This document shows positions 1,025 to 35,932 of a stretch of 64,000 nucleotides of DNA, one piece after another. A program made the position numbers and the translations under genes. The stretch is from contig OY761614.1 in NCBI GenBank assembly GCA_963664825.1, forward strand, positions 2,112,001 to 2,176,000, written 5' to 3'. The stretch is from an uncultured Holophaga sp. GTDB lineage: Bacteria > Acidobacteriota > Holophagae > Holophagales > Holophagaceae. Positions within the stretch are counted from its first letter, which is position 1. Each line of letters opens with the position of its first letter. The notes under the pieces were generated by a model. It did not search any database, was not told where the DNA came from, and saw only the letters and a program-made list of their open reading frames with translations.

Positions 1025-2056
1025 ATGACCTCGGATCCCTTCGCCTCGACCAGTGTCTCCCAGCGGGTGCGGTGGCTCACCCTCATGGCCCCCTTGATGG
1101 GAGTTCTCTGCGCGGTGGCCACGGGACAATTCGTGAGTACGGTGCTCGGCGACCACCACTGGGGAGCCCTCGGAAGACCCCGTTGGGCTGCTCATTCCGG
1201 AGCCGTCGGTTTGGTTGTGGCGCTAGGTCTGAGCCTTGTCGGCCTGGGGGCCGCACGCTTCACGTCCTGGTGGGTGGCTCGAGTCCCCACCATGGCCCGG
1301 GACCATTTCCGGGGCTGGTATTTCTGGAGCGCCCTGGTGGGCATCCCCGTGGGTTTGGCGCTGGGACATATGATGGTCTGGCTCACCCACGTCCAGCGCG
1401 TTCCGGCCTCGGCTGTGAACATGGCCCTGCTGGGCACCGTGGCCACGGTGATGACTTCCGGGATGATCGGCTACTACCGCCTGGAGAGCCTCGCCCGCAC
1501 CCAGCGAGGGCTTCTGCTCCAGAGCCAATTGGCCCCCCACTTCCTCTTCAATAGCCTCAGCACCCTGAAGGGGCAGATCGCCGACGAGCCCCTGGAGGCC
1601 CAGGTCACGGCGGATCGCCTCTCCCGTCTCTTCCGGGAACTCATGGATATGGGTGGCCAGGCCTTCATTCCGCTCTCCCGGGAACTGGCCTTCGTGGAGG
1701 CCTATCTCGGCCTGGAGAAGGCCCGGCTCGGAGACCGTCTCCAGGTGCGGATCGAAGTGCCGGAGGAACTGGAGAGCTTTCCCGTACCGCCCCTCAGCCT
1801 GCAGGTGCTGGTGGAGAATGCTGTTCGTCATGCCCTCGCACCCCGGATCGAGGGCGGTCTGCTCAGCATTCGCGCCAGCTTCGTGCCGGCCGGGCTGCAG
1901 CTGGTGGTGGGAGATCCGGGCACCGGCCAGTCGCCCAATCCAGGCACCGGCCGCGGCCTCCAGGTTCTGCGGGCGCGGCTGACACGGCCCTCGGATCTCA
2001 CCTTCGAGAGGCTTCCCGCGGGGCATCAAGCCACGCTGCTCTTGAGGAAGGCATGA
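1025..2056 (+). CDS. LytS/YehU-family membrane sensor histidine kinase
   Basis: About 4 TM helices, QLAPHFLFNSL H-box, LVENAVRH N-box. Confidence 0.9.
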   Translation: MTSDPFASTSVSQRVRWLTLMAPLMGVLCAVATGQFVSTVLGDHHWGALGRPRWAAHSGAVGLVVALGLSLVGLGAARFTSWWVARVPTMARDHFRGWYFWSALVGIPVGLALGHMMVWLTHVQRVPASAVNMALLGTVATVMTSGMIGYYRLESLARTQRGLLLQSQLAPHFLFNSLSTLKGQIADEPLEAQVTADRLSRLFRELMDMGGQAFIPLSRELAFVEAYLGLEKARLGDRLQVRIEVPEELESFPVPPLSLQVLVENAVRHALAPRIEGGLLSIRASFVPAGLQLVVGDPGTGQSPNPGTGRGLQVLRARLTRPSDLTFERLPAGHQATLLLRKA

Positions 2057-2748
2057 TCCGCATCGTCGTAGCTGAAGACGAACCCGCCAGTCGCCGACTG
2101 CTGGTGGGCTACCTGCGGGAGCTGCCGGGCGTGGAGGTTATCGGCGAGGTGGGGCACGGCGCCGAGGCCCTTGATCTCGCGGCCAGGCTCCATCCGGATG
2201 CCCTCTTTCTGGATATCGAGATGCCGGGTCTTTCTGGGATGGCGCTGGCCGCGGCTCTCCCTGATCCGAAGCCGCGCCTAGTCTTCGTGACGGCCTATGC
2301 CCAGCACGCCGTGGAGGCCTTCCGCCTGGGGACCGCCCACTACCTGCTCAAACCCGTATCCCGAGTGGATGTGGCCCAGGCGATTGCGCGGCTCTATCCC
2401 CAGGAAGCCTCCGTGCGTGGCGAGTGGCTGCGCATTCCCGTCCGGGAGCGCCATGGACTGCGCATGCTCCTTCCTGAAGATGTGGAGGCGCTGATTGCGG
2501 ATTTGGGGGATTGCCAGGCTCTCACGCCGGAGGGGAAACTGCGGGTGGAAGGCACGCTGGCCCAGTGGGAGGAACGCCTCCAACCCGTCGGGTTCTTCCG
2601 CATCCACCGCAACGCCTTGGTGCGTCTGGGGGCCGTGAAGGCATTGACCGAAGGCGACGAGGTGATCCTGCCCTCGGGCACGCTCTCCCTCAGCCGCCGT
2701 CGGCGCGAATCCCTGGCGCGGGCCCTGGGCTTTCATCTTCAGCGATAG
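2053..2748 (+). CDS. LytTR-family response regulator
   Basis: REC domain (EDE, FLDIEMP, LLKP) plus FFRIHRNALV LytTR motif; ATGA overlap with the kinase. Confidence 0.92.
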   Translation: MIRIVVAEDEPASRRLLVGYLRELPGVEVIGEVGHGAEALDLAARLHPDALFLDIEMPGLSGMALAAALPDPKPRLVFVTAYAQHAVEAFRLGTAHYLLKPVSRVDVAQAIARLYPQEASVRGEWLRIPVRERHGLRMLLPEDVEALIADLGDCQALTPEGKLRVEGTLAQWEERLQPVGFFRIHRNALVRLGAVKALTEGDEVILPSGTLSLSRRRRESLARALGFHLQR

Positions 2749-4847: not shown

Positions 4848-5534
4848 TCAGATCCCGCCGAAGCGGCGCTCGCGGACGGCATAGGCGGCCAGGGCCTCCC
4901 GCAGCTGGGGGCCGCGGAAGTCGGGCCAGAGGCATTCGGTGACGTAGAACTCGGCGTAGGCGGCCTGCCAGAGCAGGAAATTGGAGATGCGCATTTCCCC
5001 TGAGGTGCGGATGAGCAGGTCCACCTCGGGCGCATCCGCCGTCCAGAGGCGGGCCTGGAGGGCCTCCTCGGTCACTTCCTCGGCACGCAACCCGTCCTCG
5101 ATGCATCGTTGCGCCGCATGAGTGATCTCCAAGCGGCTGCCGTAATTGACCGCCAGGTGGAAGGTCATGCCCGTATGGGCGGCCGTGGAGGCTTCCAGCG
5201 CGCGGAGATCCCGCTGGATGCCTGCGGGCAGGCCTTCGAGGGCGCCCAGATGATGGAAGCGGATGTTCTTCTTTTGCAGCTTGGGCAGGAACATCCGGAG
5301 GTACATCCGCAGGAGGGCCATGAGTCCGGCCACCTCCAGGCTCGGCCGCTTCCAGTTCTCGGTGCTGAAGGCATAGAGTGACAGGTGCTGAATGCCCGCC
5401 TCCGCAGCGGCGTCCAACACCTCCTCCACGGCCCGCACGCCCTCCTTGTGCCCCTTGATTCGGGTCCAACCCCGCTGAGCCGCCCAGCGCCCGTTCCCGT
5501 CCATAATAATGGCTACGTGATTCGGCGCGCTCAT
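4848..5534 (-). CDS. uppS: Undecaprenyl diphosphate synthase
   Basis: HVAIIMDGNGRWA, FSTENWKR, LLIRTSGEMRISNFLLWQ. Confidence 0.97.
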   Translation of the reverse strand: MSAPNHVAIIMDGNGRWAAQRGWTRIKGHKEGVRAVEEVLDAAAEAGIQHLSLYAFSTENWKRPSLEVAGLMALLRMYLRMFLPKLQKKNIRFHHLGALEGLPAGIQRDLRALEASTAAHTGMTFHLAVNYGSRLEITHAAQRCIEDGLRAEEVTEEALQARLWTADAPEVDLLIRTSGEMRISNFLLWQAAYAEFYVTECLWPDFRGPQLREALAAYAVRERRFGGI

Positions 5535-5577
5535 AGGGCCACCCCGCAGAAATCGCGCGTCCAAAGGCTTGGTGCTG

Positions 5578-5751
5578 AGGCTTCGCGTATGGCCGCAGGC
5601 CATACCGAAATAATGATGCCCACGTGGGCCGGAATACTCATCGCGGGATCCCTGCTCGTGGTTTAGAACCGCCCCGCGTGTAGGTCTCGGACATCCCCGC
5701 AGGGGATTCCGAGATAATGATGGAGACCTGATTCGGGACGCTCATCGCGGG
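5578..5751. repeat. Tandem 104-bp-period repeat with a covarying hairpin
   Basis: Hairpin with GCA loop followed by CCGA(A/G)ATAATGATG-N18-CTCATCGCGGG at 5605-5647 and 5709-5751. Confidence 0.7.
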
Positions 5752-5938
5752 CACCCCTCGGGGGGGCACCAGAAACTGGGCGATGTGGCCGGAAGGCTCA
5801 AGGGCAGGATCTCCGGGAAGCCCCTTTCAGGGGCCTGAGGGCTTGGACGAACGGGCGAATTCTAGCATGGGGGGCGGGGCCCCAGGGGGGGTGGGGAAAA
5901 TCCTGCTAGGCTGGAGAGATCACCCGGGACTTCCACCC

Positions 5939-8293
5939 ATGGTCCAATTCAACACGCGCGCTAACGAGATCCTGCTGAAACTGGTCTACTACGGCCCAGG
6001 GCTCTCGGGCAAGACGACCAACCTCCAGTCCCTGCACGCCATGTGCCAGGAAGTGCAGCGGGGCGAGCTGTTCTCCGTCAACACCCAGGAGGATCGCACC
6101 CTCTTCTTCGATCTGCTTCCCATCAATCTCGGCTACATCTACGGCAACGCCATCCACCTTCAGATCTACACGGTGCCCGGCCAGGTGCAGTACGACGCGA
6201 GTCGGCGGGTGGTGTTGGGCGGGGCCGACGGCGTGGTCTTCGTGGCCGATTCCAGCGAATCCAAGATGCAGGAGAATGTGGATTCCCTCTCGAATCTTTA
6301 CCACAACCTCAATGCGAACCGGCTGAACATCAAGCAGATCCCCTTCGTGCTGCAGTACAACAAACGGGATCTGGATGATGCCATGCCGGTGGGCGTGATG
6401 AACCGGCGGCTCAATTTCCGCTCGGTGCCCTTTTTCGAGGCCGTGGCGCCTCGGGGCACGGGCGTATTGGAGACCTTCCTGTCCATCACCAAGGACACGG
6501 TGGGCACCACCTTCAAGAAGTATCACCTGGACAAGAAGATCAAGGATTTCGACGAGATGCTCAATCTCATCGAGACCAATATCCGCTCCAGCATGCGGGA
6601 GCTCCCGGCTGCCGATCAGCTGCCCCTGCCTCGGCCCGAGAGCACCGTGCTGCGCCATAGCGATGTGAGCGTGGCCGATCTGACCCCCGGCAAGGTGGCC
6701 GATGCCCAGGAACTCCTGGAGGATGCCCTCAAGTCCAATATGGAGACGGCCCGTCTCTACAGCGAACTCAAGCAGACCAAGGAAGCCCTGGACAAGAAGG
6801 GCGAGGAGATGGCCACCCTCTTCAATCAGCTGGAGCGGGCCAACCAGGATAATCTCAAGACCCGTCGCTACCTGGAGGGGCTCATCCAGAGCGTAGGGGA
6901 AGCCATCATCTCCTTCAGCCACGATGGCCGGATCCTCACCTGGAATACGGCCGCCGAGCAGATCTTCGGGTATCCCCGCAGCGAGATCGTCGGCAGATCC
7001 TTCCAAATGCTCCTCCCTCCTTCCAAGGCCGGAGAACTGGAACAAGCCATCCTCCAGGTAGGCAAGGGGCAGGTCCTCCGGGATATCCCCAGCGTTCGTG
7101 TGCGCAAGGGAGGCCAGGAATTTCCGGCTTCGGTCACCTACGCACCCATCCGGGGCAGCGATGACCGGGTGCTGGCCTTCTCAGCCCTGGTGCGGGATGT
7201 GGGCGAACAACGGACGCTGGAACATAAGCTGGAACACGCCGAGACCAGTTCGAGCCTGGCCCGCATCATGCCGCCCCTCTTCAACGAACTGGCCAACCGC
7301 CTCGGCCCGGTCCTGCTCCAGAAGAGCCTGTTGCTGGAGATGACCCCGGATCCGGGCCAGCAACTCCGCATGTCCCGGCTCTTGCAGGGGGTGGACGCGT
7401 CCCAGAACCTGTTGCGCCCCCTCCTGATGGTGCTCTCGCCCTCCTCTCCCCGCCTCGAATCCACGAACGTGAATCTCCTGGTCCAGGAGGCTGCCAAGCG
7501 CGTGGAAGCCGAGGCCGCCGCCAGCGGTGTGGCCATGGATTTCACCATGGATCCCACGGTGCCGGATTGCGGATTGGATCCCGATATGGTTCGGGAGGCC
7601 CTGGTCAATCTCTTCCGCAGCGGGGTCTTCGCGGCGGCGAAATCCACCGTGAAGCGGGTTCGCGTGGGCACTCGGGTGGCTGGAAACATGATCCAGATCG
7701 TGAGCCAGGATACGGGCGATGCCATTCCCGAACCCGAACAGGGGCGGGTCTTCGATCTCTCCGCGGCTTTGGACATCGAGGCTCTGGGTCTCTGCACGGT
7801 GGCCACCGTGGTCCATGCCCACGGGGGTCGTGTCTCGGTGCGCAGTCAGGCCGGGGTCGGGAATGCCTTTCTCGTGGAGTTGCCCATGTCCGATGCCGCT
7901 CCAAAAACGAATGCCGAACCCTCCATGCAGGGGAAGAAGATCCTGGTGGTCGATGACGAAGCCTTCCTGCTGGAGTGTCTCGTCGATGCCATGGAGGCCT
8001 GGGGATGTGTCGTGACGCCCTGCGACCTGGCCGCCGAGGCCATCCAGAAGCTTCAGGTGGGTAGCTTCGATCTCATCGTCTCCGATATCCGGATGCCCGG
8101 CCTGAGCGGCATCCAACTCTTCCAGTGGATTGCCGAGTACCAGCCCGAGATGACCAAGAAGATCATCTTCACCACGGGGGATGCCTTCGATCCGGAGACC
8201 CGCACCTTCCTGGAGGAGGCCAAGCTGCCTCATCTGGGCAAGCCCTTCGATCTTAAGAAGATGAAACAGGCCATGGGGGACGTGCTCATTTAG
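5939..8293 (+). CDS. MglA-like small GTPase fused to coiled coil, PAS, degenerate HisKA/HATPase and REC domains
   Basis: GPGLSGKTTNL, DRTLFFDLLP, TVPGQ, NKRD; PAS WNTAAEQIFGY; REC VVDDE...SDIRMPG...KPF. Confidence 0.88.
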   Translation: MVQFNTRANEILLKLVYYGPGLSGKTTNLQSLHAMCQEVQRGELFSVNTQEDRTLFFDLLPINLGYIYGNAIHLQIYTVPGQVQYDASRRVVLGGADGVVFVADSSESKMQENVDSLSNLYHNLNANRLNIKQIPFVLQYNKRDLDDAMPVGVMNRRLNFRSVPFFEAVAPRGTGVLETFLSITKDTVGTTFKKYHLDKKIKDFDEMLNLIETNIRSSMRELPAADQLPLPRPESTVLRHSDVSVADLTPGKVADAQELLEDALKSNMETARLYSELKQTKEALDKKGEEMATLFNQLERANQDNLKTRRYLEGLIQSVGEAIISFSHDGRILTWNTAAEQIFGYPRSEIVGRSFQMLLPPSKAGELEQAILQVGKGQVLRDIPSVRVRKGGQEFPASVTYAPIRGSDDRVLAFSALVRDVGEQRTLEHKLEHAETSSSLARIMPPLFNELANRLGPVLLQKSLLLEMTPDPGQQLRMSRLLQGVDASQNLLRPLLMVLSPSSPRLESTNVNLLVQEAAKRVEAEAAASGVAMDFTMDPTVPDCGLDPDMVREALVNLFRSGVFAAAKSTVKRVRVGTRVAGNMIQIVSQDTGDAIPEPEQGRVFDLSAALDIEALGLCTVATVVHAHGGRVSVRSQAGVGNAFLVELPMSDAAPKTNAEPSMQGKKILVVDDEAFLLECLVDAMEAWGCVVTPCDLAAEAIQKLQVGSFDLIVSDIRMPGLSGIQLFQWIAEYQPEMTKKIIFTTGDAFDPETRTFLEEAKLPHLGKPFDLKKMKQAMGDVLI

Positions 8294-8320
8294 TCGGGGC
8301 GCCCAAGGAAACAACTGAAC

Positions 8321-8373
8321 CACAGAGGGCGCTGAGGGAAGGAGTTCATTTCTCCCTCTTTGCGCTCTCTGCG
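8321..8373. repeat. Imperfect long hairpin between convergent genes (possible terminator or REP-like element)
   Basis: cacagagggcgc...gagggaag pairs with ctccctc...gcgctctctgcg. Confidence 0.45.
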
Positions 8374-8409
8374 ATTTTGCTTTTAGCTAGGTGGGTCCAG
8401 GATCCTGGT

Positions 8410-9036
8410 TCAGTTACCCGTGAACCCGTCCGCGAGATTCACCACCGTCATGGCTTCGTATTCCTGATGCGGGCCGGTGGCGGCCCCGGCCACGTGGATG
8501 TCTGGATTGAAAATGAGGCGGCGGTGGCCCCGGTCCGGGACCCCATCGTCGATGAGGAGCTGAAGGACCGTCATGCGCGGGGTTTCCGCGCCGTAGTTGA
8601 TGACTTCCCCGAAGGTGGAAAGGGGTAGGCCGTGCTTCAGGAGCCGCTGCTGCAGGGTGGAACCGGTGGTACCCCTGTGGCCTGTCTGCTGGGTGCGGCC
8701 CTGGTCGCGCACATGGTCCCGGGCGGCCCGGGACAGGCCCTCGTCCCAGCGCAGGGGGCCGATGGGGAGGGCCTTCTCGAGGTAAGCGATGGCCTCCTCC
8801 AGGGCGGCGGCACCTTCCTCCGTCAGGACCGTGATCTGGCCGGGCCGCTTCAGCCTCTTCCCCTCGAAAAAGGGGCGGAGTTCCCGCAGGAACCGGGCGT
8901 ATTCCCGAGGGGCCGTGCGGGCCCAGGAGAGTTCCTTCACCACAGCCACTTCCAGGGCTTCGGCCTTGGGGACCTCGGGCACCTCCGGCGCTGGGCAACC
9001 GAGGGCGGGGACGAGGAGGGCCAGTGCGGGATGCAT
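8410..9036 (-). CDS. CAP (SCP/PR-1) domain secreted protein
   Basis: AARDHVRD, GEVINYG, LLIDDGVPDRGHRRLI; N-terminal signal-like segment. Confidence 0.85.
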   Translation of the reverse strand: MHPALALLVPALGCPAPEVPEVPKAEALEVAVVKELSWARTAPREYARFLRELRPFFEGKRLKRPGQITVLTEEGAAALEEAIAYLEKALPIGPLRWDEGLSRAARDHVRDQGRTQQTGHRGTTGSTLQQRLLKHGLPLSTFGEVINYGAETPRMTVLQLLIDDGVPDRGHRRLIFNPDIHVAGAATGPHQEYEAMTVVNLADGFTGN

Positions 9037-9041
9037 GAACC

Positions 9042-9761
9042 CTACTCTTCGCCCTTCCGCTGCTTGCCCTCGGGATCGAAGGTGTAGCCCACGCTGCGCA
9101 TGGTATGGACCCAGCGGGGATGGTGGGCGTCGATCTCCATGGCGCGGCGGATGCGGACGATGAAGTTGTCCACGGTGCGGGTGGTGGGGTAGGTCTCTTC
9201 GCCCCAGACCTTGTCGAGAATCTCGGTGCGGCTCACCACCTGGCCCGGTTTCTCCATGAGGAGCTTGAGGATCATGCACTCCTTCACCCCCAGCTGGAAG
9301 GCGCCTCCGGGGCCTTCGCCGCAGAAGTTCTCGAAATCCACCCAGTGGGGGCCGAAGTTCTGGCGGCCGGCCAGGGTGCGATTCCGGTACCAGGCCTCCC
9401 GGCGCAGGATGGCGCGCACGCGCAAAAGCAGCTCCCGCACCTGGAAGGGCTTGCCCAGGTAATCGTCACCGCCTGTCTCGAAGCCGTGGACGCGATCATC
9501 CTCGGTATTCTTGGCGGTGAGAAAGAGGATGGGGGTGAAGTTCTTCGCATCCCGCACCCGCTCGCAGACGGAGAATCCGTCCATGCCCGGCAGCATCACG
9601 TCCAGGATCACCAGGTCGTAATCGTCATGGAGGATGCGCTTGAGGGCCTCGTCGCCCCGGGTGATCCACTCGCAGGGCAGGCCTTCCATTTCGAGATTGA
9701 GCTTGATGCCCTCGGCCAAGCTCAGTTCGTCTTCGACCAATAGGATCCGGGGTGCGGGCAT
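9042..9761 (-). CDS. OmpR/PhoB-family response regulator
   Basis: LVEDE, LDVMLPG, KPF, winged helix TRTVDNFIVRIR...VGY. Confidence 0.93.
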   Translation of the reverse strand: MPAPRILLVEDELSLAEGIKLNLEMEGLPCEWITRGDEALKRILHDDYDLVILDVMLPGMDGFSVCERVRDAKNFTPILFLTAKNTEDDRVHGFETGGDDYLGKPFQVRELLLRVRAILRREAWYRNRTLAGRQNFGPHWVDFENFCGEGPGGAFQLGVKECMILKLLMEKPGQVVSRTEILDKVWGEETYPTTRTVDNFIVRIRRAMEIDAHHPRWVHTMRSVGYTFDPEGKQRKGEE

Positions 9762-29515: not shown

Positions 29516-30640
29516 TCAAGGCTGGGGCCAGGCGAAGCTGACACGGTGGCCTGTCGCGAGGCGTTCCATGGTCAGGTCCTTGGGGCTTCTCAGGCGGCTG
29601 CGGAGATTGGCCAGGGCCGTGCCGCTGCCGCGGCCATCCGAGCTGAAGCCGTTGCCGGGATCCTCCACGGCCACCACCAAGCGACGGCCCTCCTGCCGGG
29701 CCGAGATGCGGAGCAAACCCCCCTCCTCCCGGGGCGCCACGCCGTGCTTGACGGCGTTTTCCACCAGCACCTGGAGGGCCAGGACTGGCATCTCACAGCT
29801 CAGCAGATTCTCGGGCACCTCGATCCTGACTCTCAGGCGCTCGCCCAGGCGAGCCTGCTCGATACCCAGGTAATCCTCCACGAAGGCCAGTTCCCGCCCC
29901 AGAGGAATCGTTGGCTCGCTCGTCACTTCCAACGCCTGACGGAAGAGCCCCGCCAGCCGTTCCGTGGTCGCTTGGGCGCGCCGAGGGTCCGCCTCGATCT
30001 GGGCGTGCAGGGTATTGAAGGCATTGAACAGGAAGTGGGGCGCCAGCTTCGAGCGCAGGGCTGTCTCCCGGGCTTCCCGAAGCCCCTTTTGTGCCTCCAG
30101 GCCCAGAAGGGCACCCTCGGTGGCCAACACCAGCAGGAACAGGATGACGGAGCGGGAGAACATTCCCCTACTGCCGAAGACACTGGTGTGGAGCCACCCC
30201 CCCCAGACCGGGTAACTGTTGCCAAAATAGTTTGTAAAATCTGGGAAGAAACGATCAATAATCCCGCGTGAAACCGCAAAGAATCCCAATAGGCTAGGCA
30301 ATAGGGCTACGAAGGCCCAGCCCGCGCCGAAGCGCCGCTGGACGCGGCGCCGCAGCAGGGCCACGGCGCACCAGAGCAATCCCAGAGCGAGGGCCAGACA
30401 GGCCAGGCGGCCCATGGTGCCTGGGATACTGGGCCACAGGGAGCGGTCCACCAGATTCCAGCCCTGAGCCTGGGCGGCCTGGACCAGGGCGGGATCCAGA
30501 TCCTCCAATCGGAAACTCACCGGCTCAAAGTGGTAATCCCAGGGGGCAAAGAGGGCCAGGGCGGCCAGGAGGCGCAGGACGAGGCCCTTCCAGGAGGTGC
30601 CATGGGCCTTGTGCAGCAGAATGGCGAGGTGGCGGATCAT
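29516..30640 (-). CDS. LytS-family sensor histidine kinase (paralog of 1025-2056)
   Basis: KLAPHFLFNAFN, LVENAVKHG, DPGNG, GSGTAL. Confidence 0.9.
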   Translation of the reverse strand: MIRHLAILLHKAHGTSWKGLVLRLLAALALFAPWDYHFEPVSFRLEDLDPALVQAAQAQGWNLVDRSLWPSIPGTMGRLACLALALGLLWCAVALLRRRVQRRFGAGWAFVALLPSLLGFFAVSRGIIDRFFPDFTNYFGNSYPVWGGWLHTSVFGSRGMFSRSVILFLLVLATEGALLGLEAQKGLREARETALRSKLAPHFLFNAFNTLHAQIEADPRRAQATTERLAGLFRQALEVTSEPTIPLGRELAFVEDYLGIEQARLGERLRVRIEVPENLLSCEMPVLALQVLVENAVKHGVAPREEGGLLRISARQEGRRLVVAVEDPGNGFSSDGRGSGTALANLRSRLRSPKDLTMERLATGHRVSFAWPQP

Positions 30641-34474: not shown

Positions 34475-35932
34475 GCCCGTGTCCCGTCAAGTGGTGTAGG
34501 AAGGTCGGCGCAGCCGATTCCGTAAGGTTGTCAAAGTTCTGTTGCTGATTGTCAGGCTGTGGGCGGTGTGGAAAGGCCGAAGGGCTTTCCAAGGGGCGGT
34601 GGGCAACCGCAGGTTGTCCATGGCCCCGGCACCGTCCATGGCCGGGTCAGGGGGGGCGTTTGAGCCCATCTTGTTTCATGCATCCATCCGGATGTAGGCG
34701 ATGCGGGCGCTGACCCACTCGGCATGCTGATCGAGGAGTAAGCTCCCGAGCAGGCGCAACACCGCGGCCCGATTGGGGAAGATCCCCACCACATCGGAAC
34801 GGCGGCGCAGTTCGCGATTCTCCCGTTCCAGGACGTTCGTGGAGTGGATCTTTCGCCAGTGGGCCTTCGGGAAGTCCATGAAGGCGGTGACGTCCTCCAC
34901 GGCCTCATCCAGCAGGGCTGCGAACCCTGGGTGCTTGCGCTCGGTGTCCCGCGCCAGGGCCGCGATCAGGGCCTGGGCCTCCTCCTTGGTGGGGGCCTGG
35001 AAAACCCGCTTGAGGCGATCCAGCATCTGCTCCTGAACGGACTTCGGTAACCGTACGGCAGCGTTGCGCATGAAATGGACGCGGCATCGCTGCCAGGTGA
35101 CCCCATTCAGCACCTTCCTGACGGCGGCTTTCAGCCCGGCGTGAGAATCCGAGATGACCAGATCTACACCCGCGAGACCGCGCTGCACAAGGCTTTCCAG
35201 GAATGCTGACCAGGCGCTCTCCATCTCGCCTTCAGCCACGGTCAGCCCCAGCACCTCGCGTTTACCCTCCGCATTCACGGCCATGGCCACCATCACCGCC
35301 AGCCCTACCACGCGCCCGCCTTCCCGAACCTTCGGATAGAGGGCGTCCAGCCAGAGGTAGCGGAAAGAACCTTCCAGCGGGCGGTTCCGGAACGCCTCCA
35401 CCTCCGCATCCAACTCCTGCGCCAGCCGGGAGACCTCGGACTTCGACATCCCCCGGCAGCCTAGGGCCTCCACCAACGCCTCGACCTTTCGCGTGCTCAC
35501 GCCCGCGACGTAGGCCTCTGCCGCCACGTTCACGAAGGCCTGTTCCCACCGACGGCGCGGCTCCAGGAAGTTCGGGAAGTAGCTGCCCTGCCGGAGCTTT
35601 GGGATGGCCAGCGGCAGCGTGCCCAGCCGCGTTTCCAGTTCCCGGTCGCGGTAGCCGTTTCGGTGGTTCTCCCGTGACGGCGTCCGCTCCCCAGGGCCCG
35701 CTTGGCAGAGCCCCGAAACGTCGGACTCCATCACCGCCTCCAGCCCCATCAGCAGCACACGCCGCAGGAAATCACCGTTCCCCTCCTCCAAAACCTTGCT
35801 CAGGGCTTCCAGCCCAGACACCCTATTGATGGCCATCGGTCTCTCCGTTCGGTAAGTTCGCAAACCTCACCTTACGGAACCGGTGGCCACCTCTCACTGA
35901 ACCACTGCTACACCACTTGATGGGACTCTATC
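34475..35932 (-). mobile_element. IS256-family insertion sequence (1458 bp) with 8-bp TSD AAAAGTTC
   Basis: IRs GCCCGTGTCCCGTCAAGTGGTGTAG / GATAGAGTCCCATCAAGTGGTGTAG; TSD at 34467-34474 and 35933-35940. Confidence 0.92.
34676..35836 (-). CDS. IS256-family DDE transposase
   Basis: RNGYR.R...[46 protein letters not shown]. Confidence 0.95.

Follow-up and report, generated by a model that had tools for sequence, protein, structure and literature searches.

The window analysed here is a stretch of 64,000 nucleotides from the genome of an uncultured Holophaga sp. of the family Holophagaceae (GenBank assembly GCA_963664825.1, contig OY761614.1, positions 2,112,001 to 2,176,000 of the forward strand). 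One of its genes encodes, in a single chain, a small GTPase domain of the MglA type (G domain), a coiled coil, a PAS domain, a degenerate histidine-kinase core composed of a DHp-like hairpin and a CA domain, and a receiver domain (REC) (Table 1). The gene encodes a conserved domain architecture that is new in its combination and made of known parts. It lies in a single open frame on the plus strand, 5783 to 8293, and translation from the proposed start, the ATG at 5939, yields a product of 784 amino acids (aa). This start is supported because nine of nine family orthologues drawn from whole genomes begin with the identical N-terminus MVQFNTRANE. No close Shine-Dalgarno sequence was found upstream of ATG 5939, and the choice of the start codon therefore rests on conservation. 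A promoter and terminator scan of positions 5500-8600 returned no promoter-like element and one terminator-like element, which lies on the opposite strand; these counts did not exceed those of shuffled sequences.

Table 1. Features of the MglA fusion gene and its convergent neighbour, in window coordinates.
Feature	Coordinates	Strand	Remarks
Whole coding sequence	5939..8293	+	784 aa and stop; order MglA - linker - coiled coil - PAS - pseudo-DHp/CA - REC
MglA-type G domain (aa 1-195)	5939..6523	+	G1 GPGLSGKT, arginine finger R53, G3 TVPGQ, G4 NKRD
Extra helix (aa 204-218) and variable, probably flexible tether (aa ~224-253)	6524..6703	+	from model and from insertions and deletions
Long helix / coiled coil (aa 256-318)	6704..6892	+	starts with the LLEDALKSNMETARLY block, common to GAF-kinase fusions
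PAS domain (aa 319-425)	6893..7213	+	PAS_4 59.9, PAS 58.4, PAS_9 58.2 bits; predicted local distance difference test (pLDDT) 83-90
DHp-like helical hairpin (aa 426-500)	7214..7438	+	Asn449 (codon 7283-7285) at the phospho-His position
Degenerate CA (HATPase_c) domain (aa 507-655)	7457..7903	+	N-box Asn is Ser561; G1 DTGDA, G2 EALGL; pLDDT ~80-89
Receiver (aa 666-784)	7934..8290	+	D672, D673, D716, T746, K768
Convergent OmpR-type response regulator	9042..9761	-	Response_reg and Trans_reg_C

The fusion is genuine and conserved. We searched the phylum with residues 1-334 as query, covering 401 genomes (3 of them unpublished, on which no particular claim depends) with five candidates scored per genome. 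An uninterrupted orthologue that matches the whole query (E <= 1.8e-159) is present in 28 of the 30 other genomes of the own family, in frames of ~690-1570 codons without stops; the two family genomes without a match are 1.1-1.2 Mb in size. Split genes or an assembly artefact, which the original prediction had named as its possible undoing, are not what these genomes contain. More than 120 full-length relatives with 65-90% identity are found in the protein database, their sources being named Holophaga, Geothrix, Mesoterricola or Holophagaceae. Named genome records hold nine complete orthologues of 784-794 aa and two copies truncated at contig ends, all from Holophagaceae/Holophagales or from metagenome bins tagged Acidobacteria only. 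The orthologue of Holophaga foetida DSM 6591 has 787 aa and carries the same Asn and Ser substitutions in its kinase core as the window copy. In NCBIfam only a generic PAS domain model ('sensory_box') passes its cut-off, and no curated model does so for the entire protein or the G domain; the ESM Atlas returned generic PAS, kinase and receiver clusters and nothing on the G-domain fusion.

The G domain has the intact MglA signature that was read from the sequence at the outset. Pfam Ras covers residues 67-186 with 27.4 bits (cut-off 21.6), and residues 5-193 align with the solved MglA proteins of Myxococcus xanthus (E 6.5e-55) and Thermus thermophilus (E 2.1e-48). The P-loop consensus GxxxxGK[ST] is found as GPGLSGKT. 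The features of group 1 of the MglA proteins, an intrinsic arginine finger together with TxxGQ, which holds the catalytic Gln and in which Thr replaces the Asp of Ras, are also present, and D52-R53-T54 and T78-V79-P80-G81-Q82 align with their counterparts in M. xanthus MglA. In 21 of 21 fused homologues the G1 stretch G19-T27 (including G19, G24, K25 and T26 of the P-loop), the arginine finger of switch I (D52-R53-T54), the TVPGQ motif (T78-Q82) and the residues N141, K142 and D144 are invariant. The domain keeps all catalytic motifs and, judged from these, would bind and hydrolyse GTP. In size the protein falls outside the MglA family, whose members are single domains of ~150-240 aa, since it has 784 aa and four further domains.

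Structure prediction points in the same direction. A full-length AlphaFold 2 (AF2) model based on a 90-row family alignment gave a poorly modelled G domain (pLDDT 29-63 over aa 1-170), as the alignment hardly varies in that part. Residues 1-340 were refolded with a diverse alignment of 21 rows, which resulted in a predicted template modelling (pTM) score of 0.70 and a pLDDT of ~90 for the G domain. When this model was searched against the PDB with Foldseek, the top 12 matches were all MglA. The best of them, 6izw_A, is the MglB-bound form of MglA with GTPgammaS (template modelling (TM) score 0.91, root-mean-square deviation 1.9 A), and Ras and Rab proteins rank after MglA with TM ~0.7. Among eight full-length orthologues the mean pairwise identity of the G domain is 0.91. 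The canonical MglA of the family is 89-96% identical to the copy of this genome in 28 of 29 full-length hits elsewhere, the exception having 85% identity and two in-frame stops. Thus, the fused G domain is conserved as strongly as the canonical MglA of the family.

Behind the G domain, the extra helix is modelled with a pLDDT of ~80 and leads into the tether. Here the pLDDT stays below 55 across aa 224-250 and below 50 at aa 224-229 and 239-250, the means of 10-residue blocks over aa 221-250 are 44-53, and the stretch shows insertions and deletions among homologues. Within the low-confidence tether encoded at 6524-6703 there is a semi-conserved motif, TVLRHS.VSV..L.PGKVADAQ, that is nearly invariant in the family and recognisable as TVL+Y/H in PAS-type relatives; it could be a docking peptide. 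The long helix that follows ends at aa 318 in one AF2 model and at aa 323 in the other. A helix block, LLE.A..SNME.A.LY, located between tether and sensor, is common to all fusion forms of the class that is described below. The succession of a coiled coil and a PAS domain after the G domain had been correctly recognised; the Pfam span of the PAS domain is residues 312-425, above the family threshold.

The histidine-kinase core of the window copy is without every catalytic signature, as had been proposed. Pfam HATPase_c matches residues 549-651 with 35.5 bits (cut-off 26.4), and HisKA is absent from the 19 Pfam families that match the window protein at E <= 1. In the full-length AF2 model two helices (421-460 and 472-499) precede an alpha/beta domain (507-649), the PAS, DHp, CA and REC folds reaching pLDDT values of ~74-89. 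Together with the HATPase_c match these modelled folds point to a DHp hairpin followed by a CA domain of the Bergerat type. Structure prediction, which had been suggested as a check, therefore bears out the MglA fold and the four folds behind it, but it provides no confident arrangement of the domains relative to each other (pTM 0.39). The boxes of histidine kinases were taken as they are generally defined. Residue-by-residue alignment to ZraS and FixL places Asn449 at the position of the phospho-His and Ser561 at that of the N-box Asn, and the G1 box (DxGxG) reads DTGDA and the G2 box (GxGLGL) EALGL. With no His, no N-box Asn and no G1 and G2 glycines, the kinase core of this lineage is predicted to be incapable of autophosphorylation. 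That it is still an unorthodox working kinase or phosphotransferase appears very unlikely to us. HATPase_c scores above its cut-off, the H-box stretch NELAN retains its E and N, and the His is kept in a good part of the relatives (see below). However, an Asn stands at the His position, a Ser replaces the Mg-binding Asn, the G1 and G2 glycines of the ATP lid are lost, and the second G1 glycine is found in 0 of 160 family rows.

The receiver is intact, in agreement with the first reading. Pfam Response_reg covers residues 668-778 with 65.1 bits, and the five residues that form a receiver active site (DD, D, T/S and K), as outlined in part of 10.1101/2025.06.23.661182, are all present (Table 1). 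Almost every one of the ~150 family rows with a receiver shows the same DD, T and K motifs. Since the receiver is intact and no live kinase is present in cis, its phosphate would have to be supplied by another kinase acting in trans or by a small donor.

The ratio of nonsynonymous to synonymous substitution rates (dN/dS) against a same-genus orthologue is 0.04 for the G domain, 0.10 for the coiled coil, 0.11 for PAS, 0.20 for DHp, 0.17 for CA and 0.25 for REC. Mean pairwise identities among the eight full-length orthologues are 0.47 for DHp, 0.50 for CA and 0.59 for REC. The dead kinase core hence evolves faster and yet clearly not neutrally; purifying selection still maintains it as a folded module. 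A decaying and functionless C-terminal half, or an artefactual fusion, is scarcely credible in the light of these data. DHp and CA are indeed the fastest-evolving parts of the protein, but dN/dS values of 0.17-0.25 for the three domains behind PAS in the closest pair, the complete lack of stops in 29 family frames and the conserved active site of the receiver speak against a relic, and the occurrence of the same architecture in single-contig genomes and in named cultured strains speaks against an artefact.

While the loss of catalytic residues holds true for the window copy, it is lineage-specific within the family as far as the His and the N-box Asn are concerned. We scored 162 family sequences, 160 of which cover the kinase core (near-full-length rows). 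In none of these 160 are the first two G2 glycines found. The phospho-His is kept in 71, a copy from a Geothrix strain being an example, and lost in 89 of them, with at least 3 state changes on a FastTree tree, and the N-box Asn is kept in 69 and lost in 91, with at least 12 state changes on the same tree. Among the 71 members that keep the His, 52 also keep the N-box Asn. The phospho-acceptor Asp of the receiver is present in 150 of the 160 rows. Sequences of the window type, which have neither the His nor the N-box Asn and possess a receiver, likewise number 71 of 160. Forms of 649-663 aa that are devoid of REC occur inside the family in two genera.

The window protein is the Holophagaceae branch of a class of MglA-sensor-kinase fusions that is spread over the Acidobacteriota. 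Outside the family this class includes a 629-aa form, MglA-PAS-HATPase_c, which has no receiver, a His aligned at the H-box and canonical N and G1 boxes. The smallest relatives, from a sister family, consist of ~410 aa in the order MglA-coil-PAS, without kinase or receiver. In other Acidobacteriota families proteins of 720-750 aa have the order MglA-GAF-HisKA-HATPase_c, with HisKA scoring up to 78.6 bits and HATPase_c up to 105 bits. Canonical H boxes were seen in three of the sampled GAF-kinase fusions (L019, L026 and L023); in the first two of these the N, G1 and G2 boxes are canonical as well. We placed 42 G domains in a tree, obtained by a quick search and rooted on the canonical MglA copy. 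Here, all 34 sensor-fused G domains form one clade and the 15 PAS-type G domains form one clade, each with a support of 98 in the Shimodaira-Hasegawa-like approximate likelihood ratio test (SH-aLRT). The canonical MglA and two other paralogues of this genome fall outside the sensor-fused clade. The single clade and the common helix block argue for one old fusion that diversified. The window protein descends from MglA-sensor-histidine kinases whose cores were intact, and the Holophagaceae form acquired its receiver as the ATP site degenerated. Three further GAF-kinase fusions from other Acidobacteriota families (L021, L027 and L020) lack only the phospho-His, which is replaced by Thr, Asn and Gln, respectively, and keep the N, G1 and G2 boxes; such a loss of the His alone is a route to a His-less kinase unlike that of the window protein. 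The REC-less form of the sister family is surrounded by metabolic genes, and a LuxR-type two-component pair lies ~2 kb off and is not adjacent. In Planctomycetota, loci from named genome records match aa 1-198 at most, in frames of 181-514 aa, two of which are cut at contig ends.

The class-wide constant module, G domain, tether, coil and PAS or GAF, bears on a further reading. The dimeric PAS domain, or GAF in the relatives, might act in cis as an MglB-like platform, that is as a GTPase-activating protein (GAP) or guanine-nucleotide exchange factor (GEF), so that its ligand sets the GTPase cycle and the kinase and receiver are add-ons. Small alpha/beta-sandwich dimers of the Roadblock/LC7 type, MglB among them, are platforms for small GTPases, as part of 10.1101/2023.03.05.531159 describes; in the fusion the switch I and switch II faces are invariant and the length of the tether allows the G domain to fold back. 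Nevertheless, we hold this to be decidedly improbable. The PAS domain has no sequence likeness to MglB (hhalign probability of 0.15% against the MglB profile), and the full-length model, in which the G domain is badly modelled, shows no docking.

The genome is a single contig of 3.47 Mb and encodes four MglA-type domains, namely the fusion, the canonical MglA and two paralogues. Four per genome is usual in the family, and up to five per genome were found in the phylum search, five being the number of candidates scored. The canonical mglA (194 aa) lies directly downstream of mglB (an open reading frame (ORF) of 175 aa) and ~400 kb from the fusion gene. No mglB had been visible in the window, and Pfam searches of 44 further window ORFs find none. 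It was looked for elsewhere in the genome and found in this canonical mglB-mglA operon; the only strong Robl_LC7 gene (genome positions 2,517,909-2,518,178) adjoins the canonical mglA, and mglB is not adjacent to the fusion. Exactly one MglB match is present in 49 of 61 sampled Acidobacteriota genomes (two unpublished ones included). In our extract of the own genome the pair lies at L005:727-1851 on the minus strand, and the true start of mglB is probably later than that of the ORF, as suggested by homologues that align from residues 2-20, most of them from 8-17. A second Roadblock/LC7 match, at genome positions 847215-847472, remains below threshold with 20.1 bits. The two MglA paralogues have 388 aa (L002:1501-2667, plus strand) and 292 aa (L004:1501-2379, plus strand); their tails are proline-rich or acidic with no Pfam family beyond the G domain, and the family as a whole conserves the two of them. 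MglA paralogues extended to 300-550 aa are found in records from Planctomycetota, Ignavibacteria, Zixibacteria and Nitrospirota, too.

A complex of the fused G domain with two MglB, GTP and Mg was predicted with a median score of 0.59 (runs 0.59, 0.64 and 0.59), the best of three controls scoring 0.00. The runs agree in at least 50% of the contacts and the pLDDT of the partner is at least 84. In the calibration of this test, 116 of 157 solved complexes attained the mark, as did 2 of 215 mismatched pairs; at scores of 0.60 or less, 18 of the 157 solved complexes passed together with both mismatches, and a weak pass is more often wrong unless the pairing was likely beforehand. Since solved MglA-MglB complexes exist, the pass may merely reflect likeness to known structures. 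Regulation of the fused G domain by MglB in trans is thus possible, and the model lends it weak support.

The fusion gene is divergent from uppS-cdsA-dxr in nine of nine family loci. The convergent OmpR-type regulator had been put forward as a possible partner. An OmpR gene is found within 4 kb of the fusion in five of nine family loci, always beside a glycosyltransferase family 2 (GT2) gene and with variable genes between it and the fusion. It therefore travels with the GT2 gene rather than with the fusion, and a dedicated partnership is unsupported. We found no conserved kinase gene near the fusion in the nine family loci and the window ORFs. The gene between the fusion and the OmpR gene, which encodes a CAP/SCP-domain protein (8410-9279, minus strand), is there in two of nine family loci only. 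The rest of the window holds housekeeping genes and, 3 kb upstream of the fusion, a complete two-component pair of a LytS-type histidine kinase (His_kinase PF06580) and a LytTR regulator (1025-2748, plus strand). A second PF06580 kinase is encoded at 29516-30640 on the minus strand. A Mutator-family (IS256-like) transposase (34676-35863, minus strand, 417.8 bits) is flanked by ORFs that have a low third-position GC (0.55-0.60) and match no Pfam family, as one might see around an inserted element.

How might such a protein work? We favour, tentatively and at somewhat short of an even chance, a mechanism that takes its inputs at the PAS domain and the receiver, uses the dead kinase as a dimeric scaffold and has the tethered MglA domain for its output. 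The product would be a soluble, probably dimeric signalling protein whose live parts are the N-terminal MglA-type GTPase and the C-terminal phosphorylatable receiver. PAS would sense a ligand or partner and the receiver would sense phosphorylation, with the dead DHp/CA core acting in a DivL-like manner as dimerisation scaffold and docking site for the receiver. A change of state in the PAS/DHp/REC body would alter the GTP state of MglA, or how well this domain can reach effectors and MglB. Because the G domain sits on a flexible tether of ~30 residues, the coupling would work by docking and release rather than through a rigid helix. The minimal MglA-coil-PAS relatives and the REC-less forms identify G domain plus sensor as the constant module. 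We favour the GTPase as output because this module is constant while kinase and receiver come and go, because no other part comes close to the G domain in constraint, and because in this lineage the only live chemistry besides GTP hydrolysis would be receiver phosphorylation, with an external source of phosphate. The direction implied by the term 'GTPase-gated' in the original prediction is hence not borne out, as the minimal conserved module points the other way. By analogy with other group-1 MglA proteins, the cellular role is likely a polarity- or pilus-type regulation; with seven matches to T2SSE-family (PilB/PilT-type) ATPases in the genome, a pilus-type target is possible.

Several points weigh against the GTPase as output. 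In kinases it is usually the inputs that are found at the N-terminus, and this speaks for the opposite direction. A flexible tether would be just as compatible with a G domain that acts on its own, and the full-length model has no confident packing between the domains. The neighbourhood, with uppS-cdsA-dxr in all nine family loci, is of a housekeeping nature, and Pfam searches of the window ORFs revealed no motility genes. With the His kept in 71 of 160 members and the N-box Asn in 52 of these, one mechanism may not fit the whole family, and in the His-keeping lineages a phosphotransfer or phosphatase role of the DHp domain may persist.

The direction of signalling is what we infer here, and the opposite direction remains a live reading. 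In that case, the nucleotide state of MglA, set by MglB or a GEF at the cell pole, would gate the PAS/pseudokinase/REC body, a proposal that we regard as possible but on the unlikely side; that this body in turn influences two-component partners, be it by scaffolding, by draining phosphate or by sequestration, we judge similarly doubtful. The position of the G domain ahead of the sensor and kinase modules is the usual place for an input in histidine kinases. Ancestral forms combine this G domain and coiled coil with a kinase that is intact, and in these the G domain plausibly controlled the kinase output. The receiver retains all of its active-site residues, and the complex prediction with MglB (0.59 against 0.00 for the best control) adds weak support. 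However, the minimal relatives have neither a kinase nor a receiver that could be gated, a flexible tether of ~30 residues and no continuous helix joins the G domain to the coiled coil, and no downstream partner is conserved nearby, the OmpR gene being present in five of nine loci.

The GTPase as output can be extended to a bolder picture, which we consider unlikely as a whole. The protein would then be a single-chain bacterial 'receptor-coupled G protein', in which receiver phosphorylation and the PAS ligand are read by the dead core in the manner of DivL and passed on by docking and release of MglA, perhaps with the PAS dimer as a cis-acting MglB-like GAP or GEF. Phosphorelay would directly set a Ras-like polarity switch, and the class would constitute an undescribed junction of small GTPases and two-component systems.

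In comparison to MglA of M. xanthus and T. thermophilus, the G domain of the window protein is ~49-50% identical and shares the arginine finger, TVPGQ, NKRD and the fold, and this genome, like MglA/MglB systems (for background see PMC4546325), has a canonical mglB-mglA pair. Known MglA is a stand-alone protein of ~195 aa encoded beside mglB, the gene of its GAP, whereas here the G domain heads a chain of 784 aa encoded ~400 kb from mglB. The survey of prokaryotic small GTPases in which group 1 MglA was defined (Wuichet and Sogaard-Andersen 2015, PMC4316618) excluded sequences of more than 240 aa, according to the portion of it that we drew on, and so did not cover such fusions. Full-text searches, with subscription journals outside their reach, found no literature on an MglA domain fused to a histidine kinase or PAS domain. 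The earlier claim of an uncharacterised architecture stands to this extent; the protein is not a one-off, since the class is found across Acidobacteriota. Its closest counterparts there, the MglA-GAF-HisKA-HATPase_c proteins, share with it the G-domain clade (SH-aLRT 98), the helix block and the order of G domain, coil, sensor and kinase. They differ by having GAF in place of PAS and no receiver, and several have intact H, N, G1 and G2 boxes.

Like the window protein, DivL of Caulobacter crescentus contains PAS and a kinase-like core that has lost its phospho-His, a Tyr being present at this position. According to PMC4211667, the core of DivL has taken on the task of detecting a phosphorylated receiver, so that information runs backwards, and such a reverse flow is therefore possible in principle. 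However, DivL lacks a GTPase domain and is paired with a free-standing receiver, DivK; reverse signalling in the window protein is proposed purely by analogy. The actinobacterial conservon (CvnA kinase, CvnB roadblock protein, CvnC and the MglA-family GTPase CvnD) also lets a GTPase work with a histidine kinase and an MglB homologue, a pairing noted in parts of PMC4316618 and PMC12236503. There, four separate operon proteins include a group 2 GTPase without arginine finger and a membrane-bound kinase, whereas the window protein unites a group-1-like G domain and a dead kinase in a single soluble chain. A Ras-like G domain within a larger chain is shared by Roco proteins and SofG. Roco proteins combine a Roc G domain and COR, often with a protein kinase, in one chain; the G domain is of a different family and the kinases are Ser/Thr kinases. 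SofG, an MglA paralogue with extensions, is devoid of sensor, kinase and receiver domains.

In bacteria, two-component systems and small Ras-like GTPases are usually viewed as regulatory logics of their own, and the known links between the two, such as Frz and RomR with MglA or the conservon, join separate proteins. Here, both logics are joined in one conserved protein, in which the chemistry of the kinase is predicted to be lost, the G domain is under strong constraint and the receiver is intact. Orthologues occur in cultured strains that are not pathogenic (Holophaga foetida DSM 6591, and by their source names Geothrix and Mesoterricola), which makes the question of their function amenable to bench work. 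The class provides a natural series that comprises an intact kinase, a His-less kinase, a fully dead kinase with a receiver and no kinase at all. This series lets one ask how a G-protein switch and a phosphorelay communicate, and what pseudo-histidine kinases are for.

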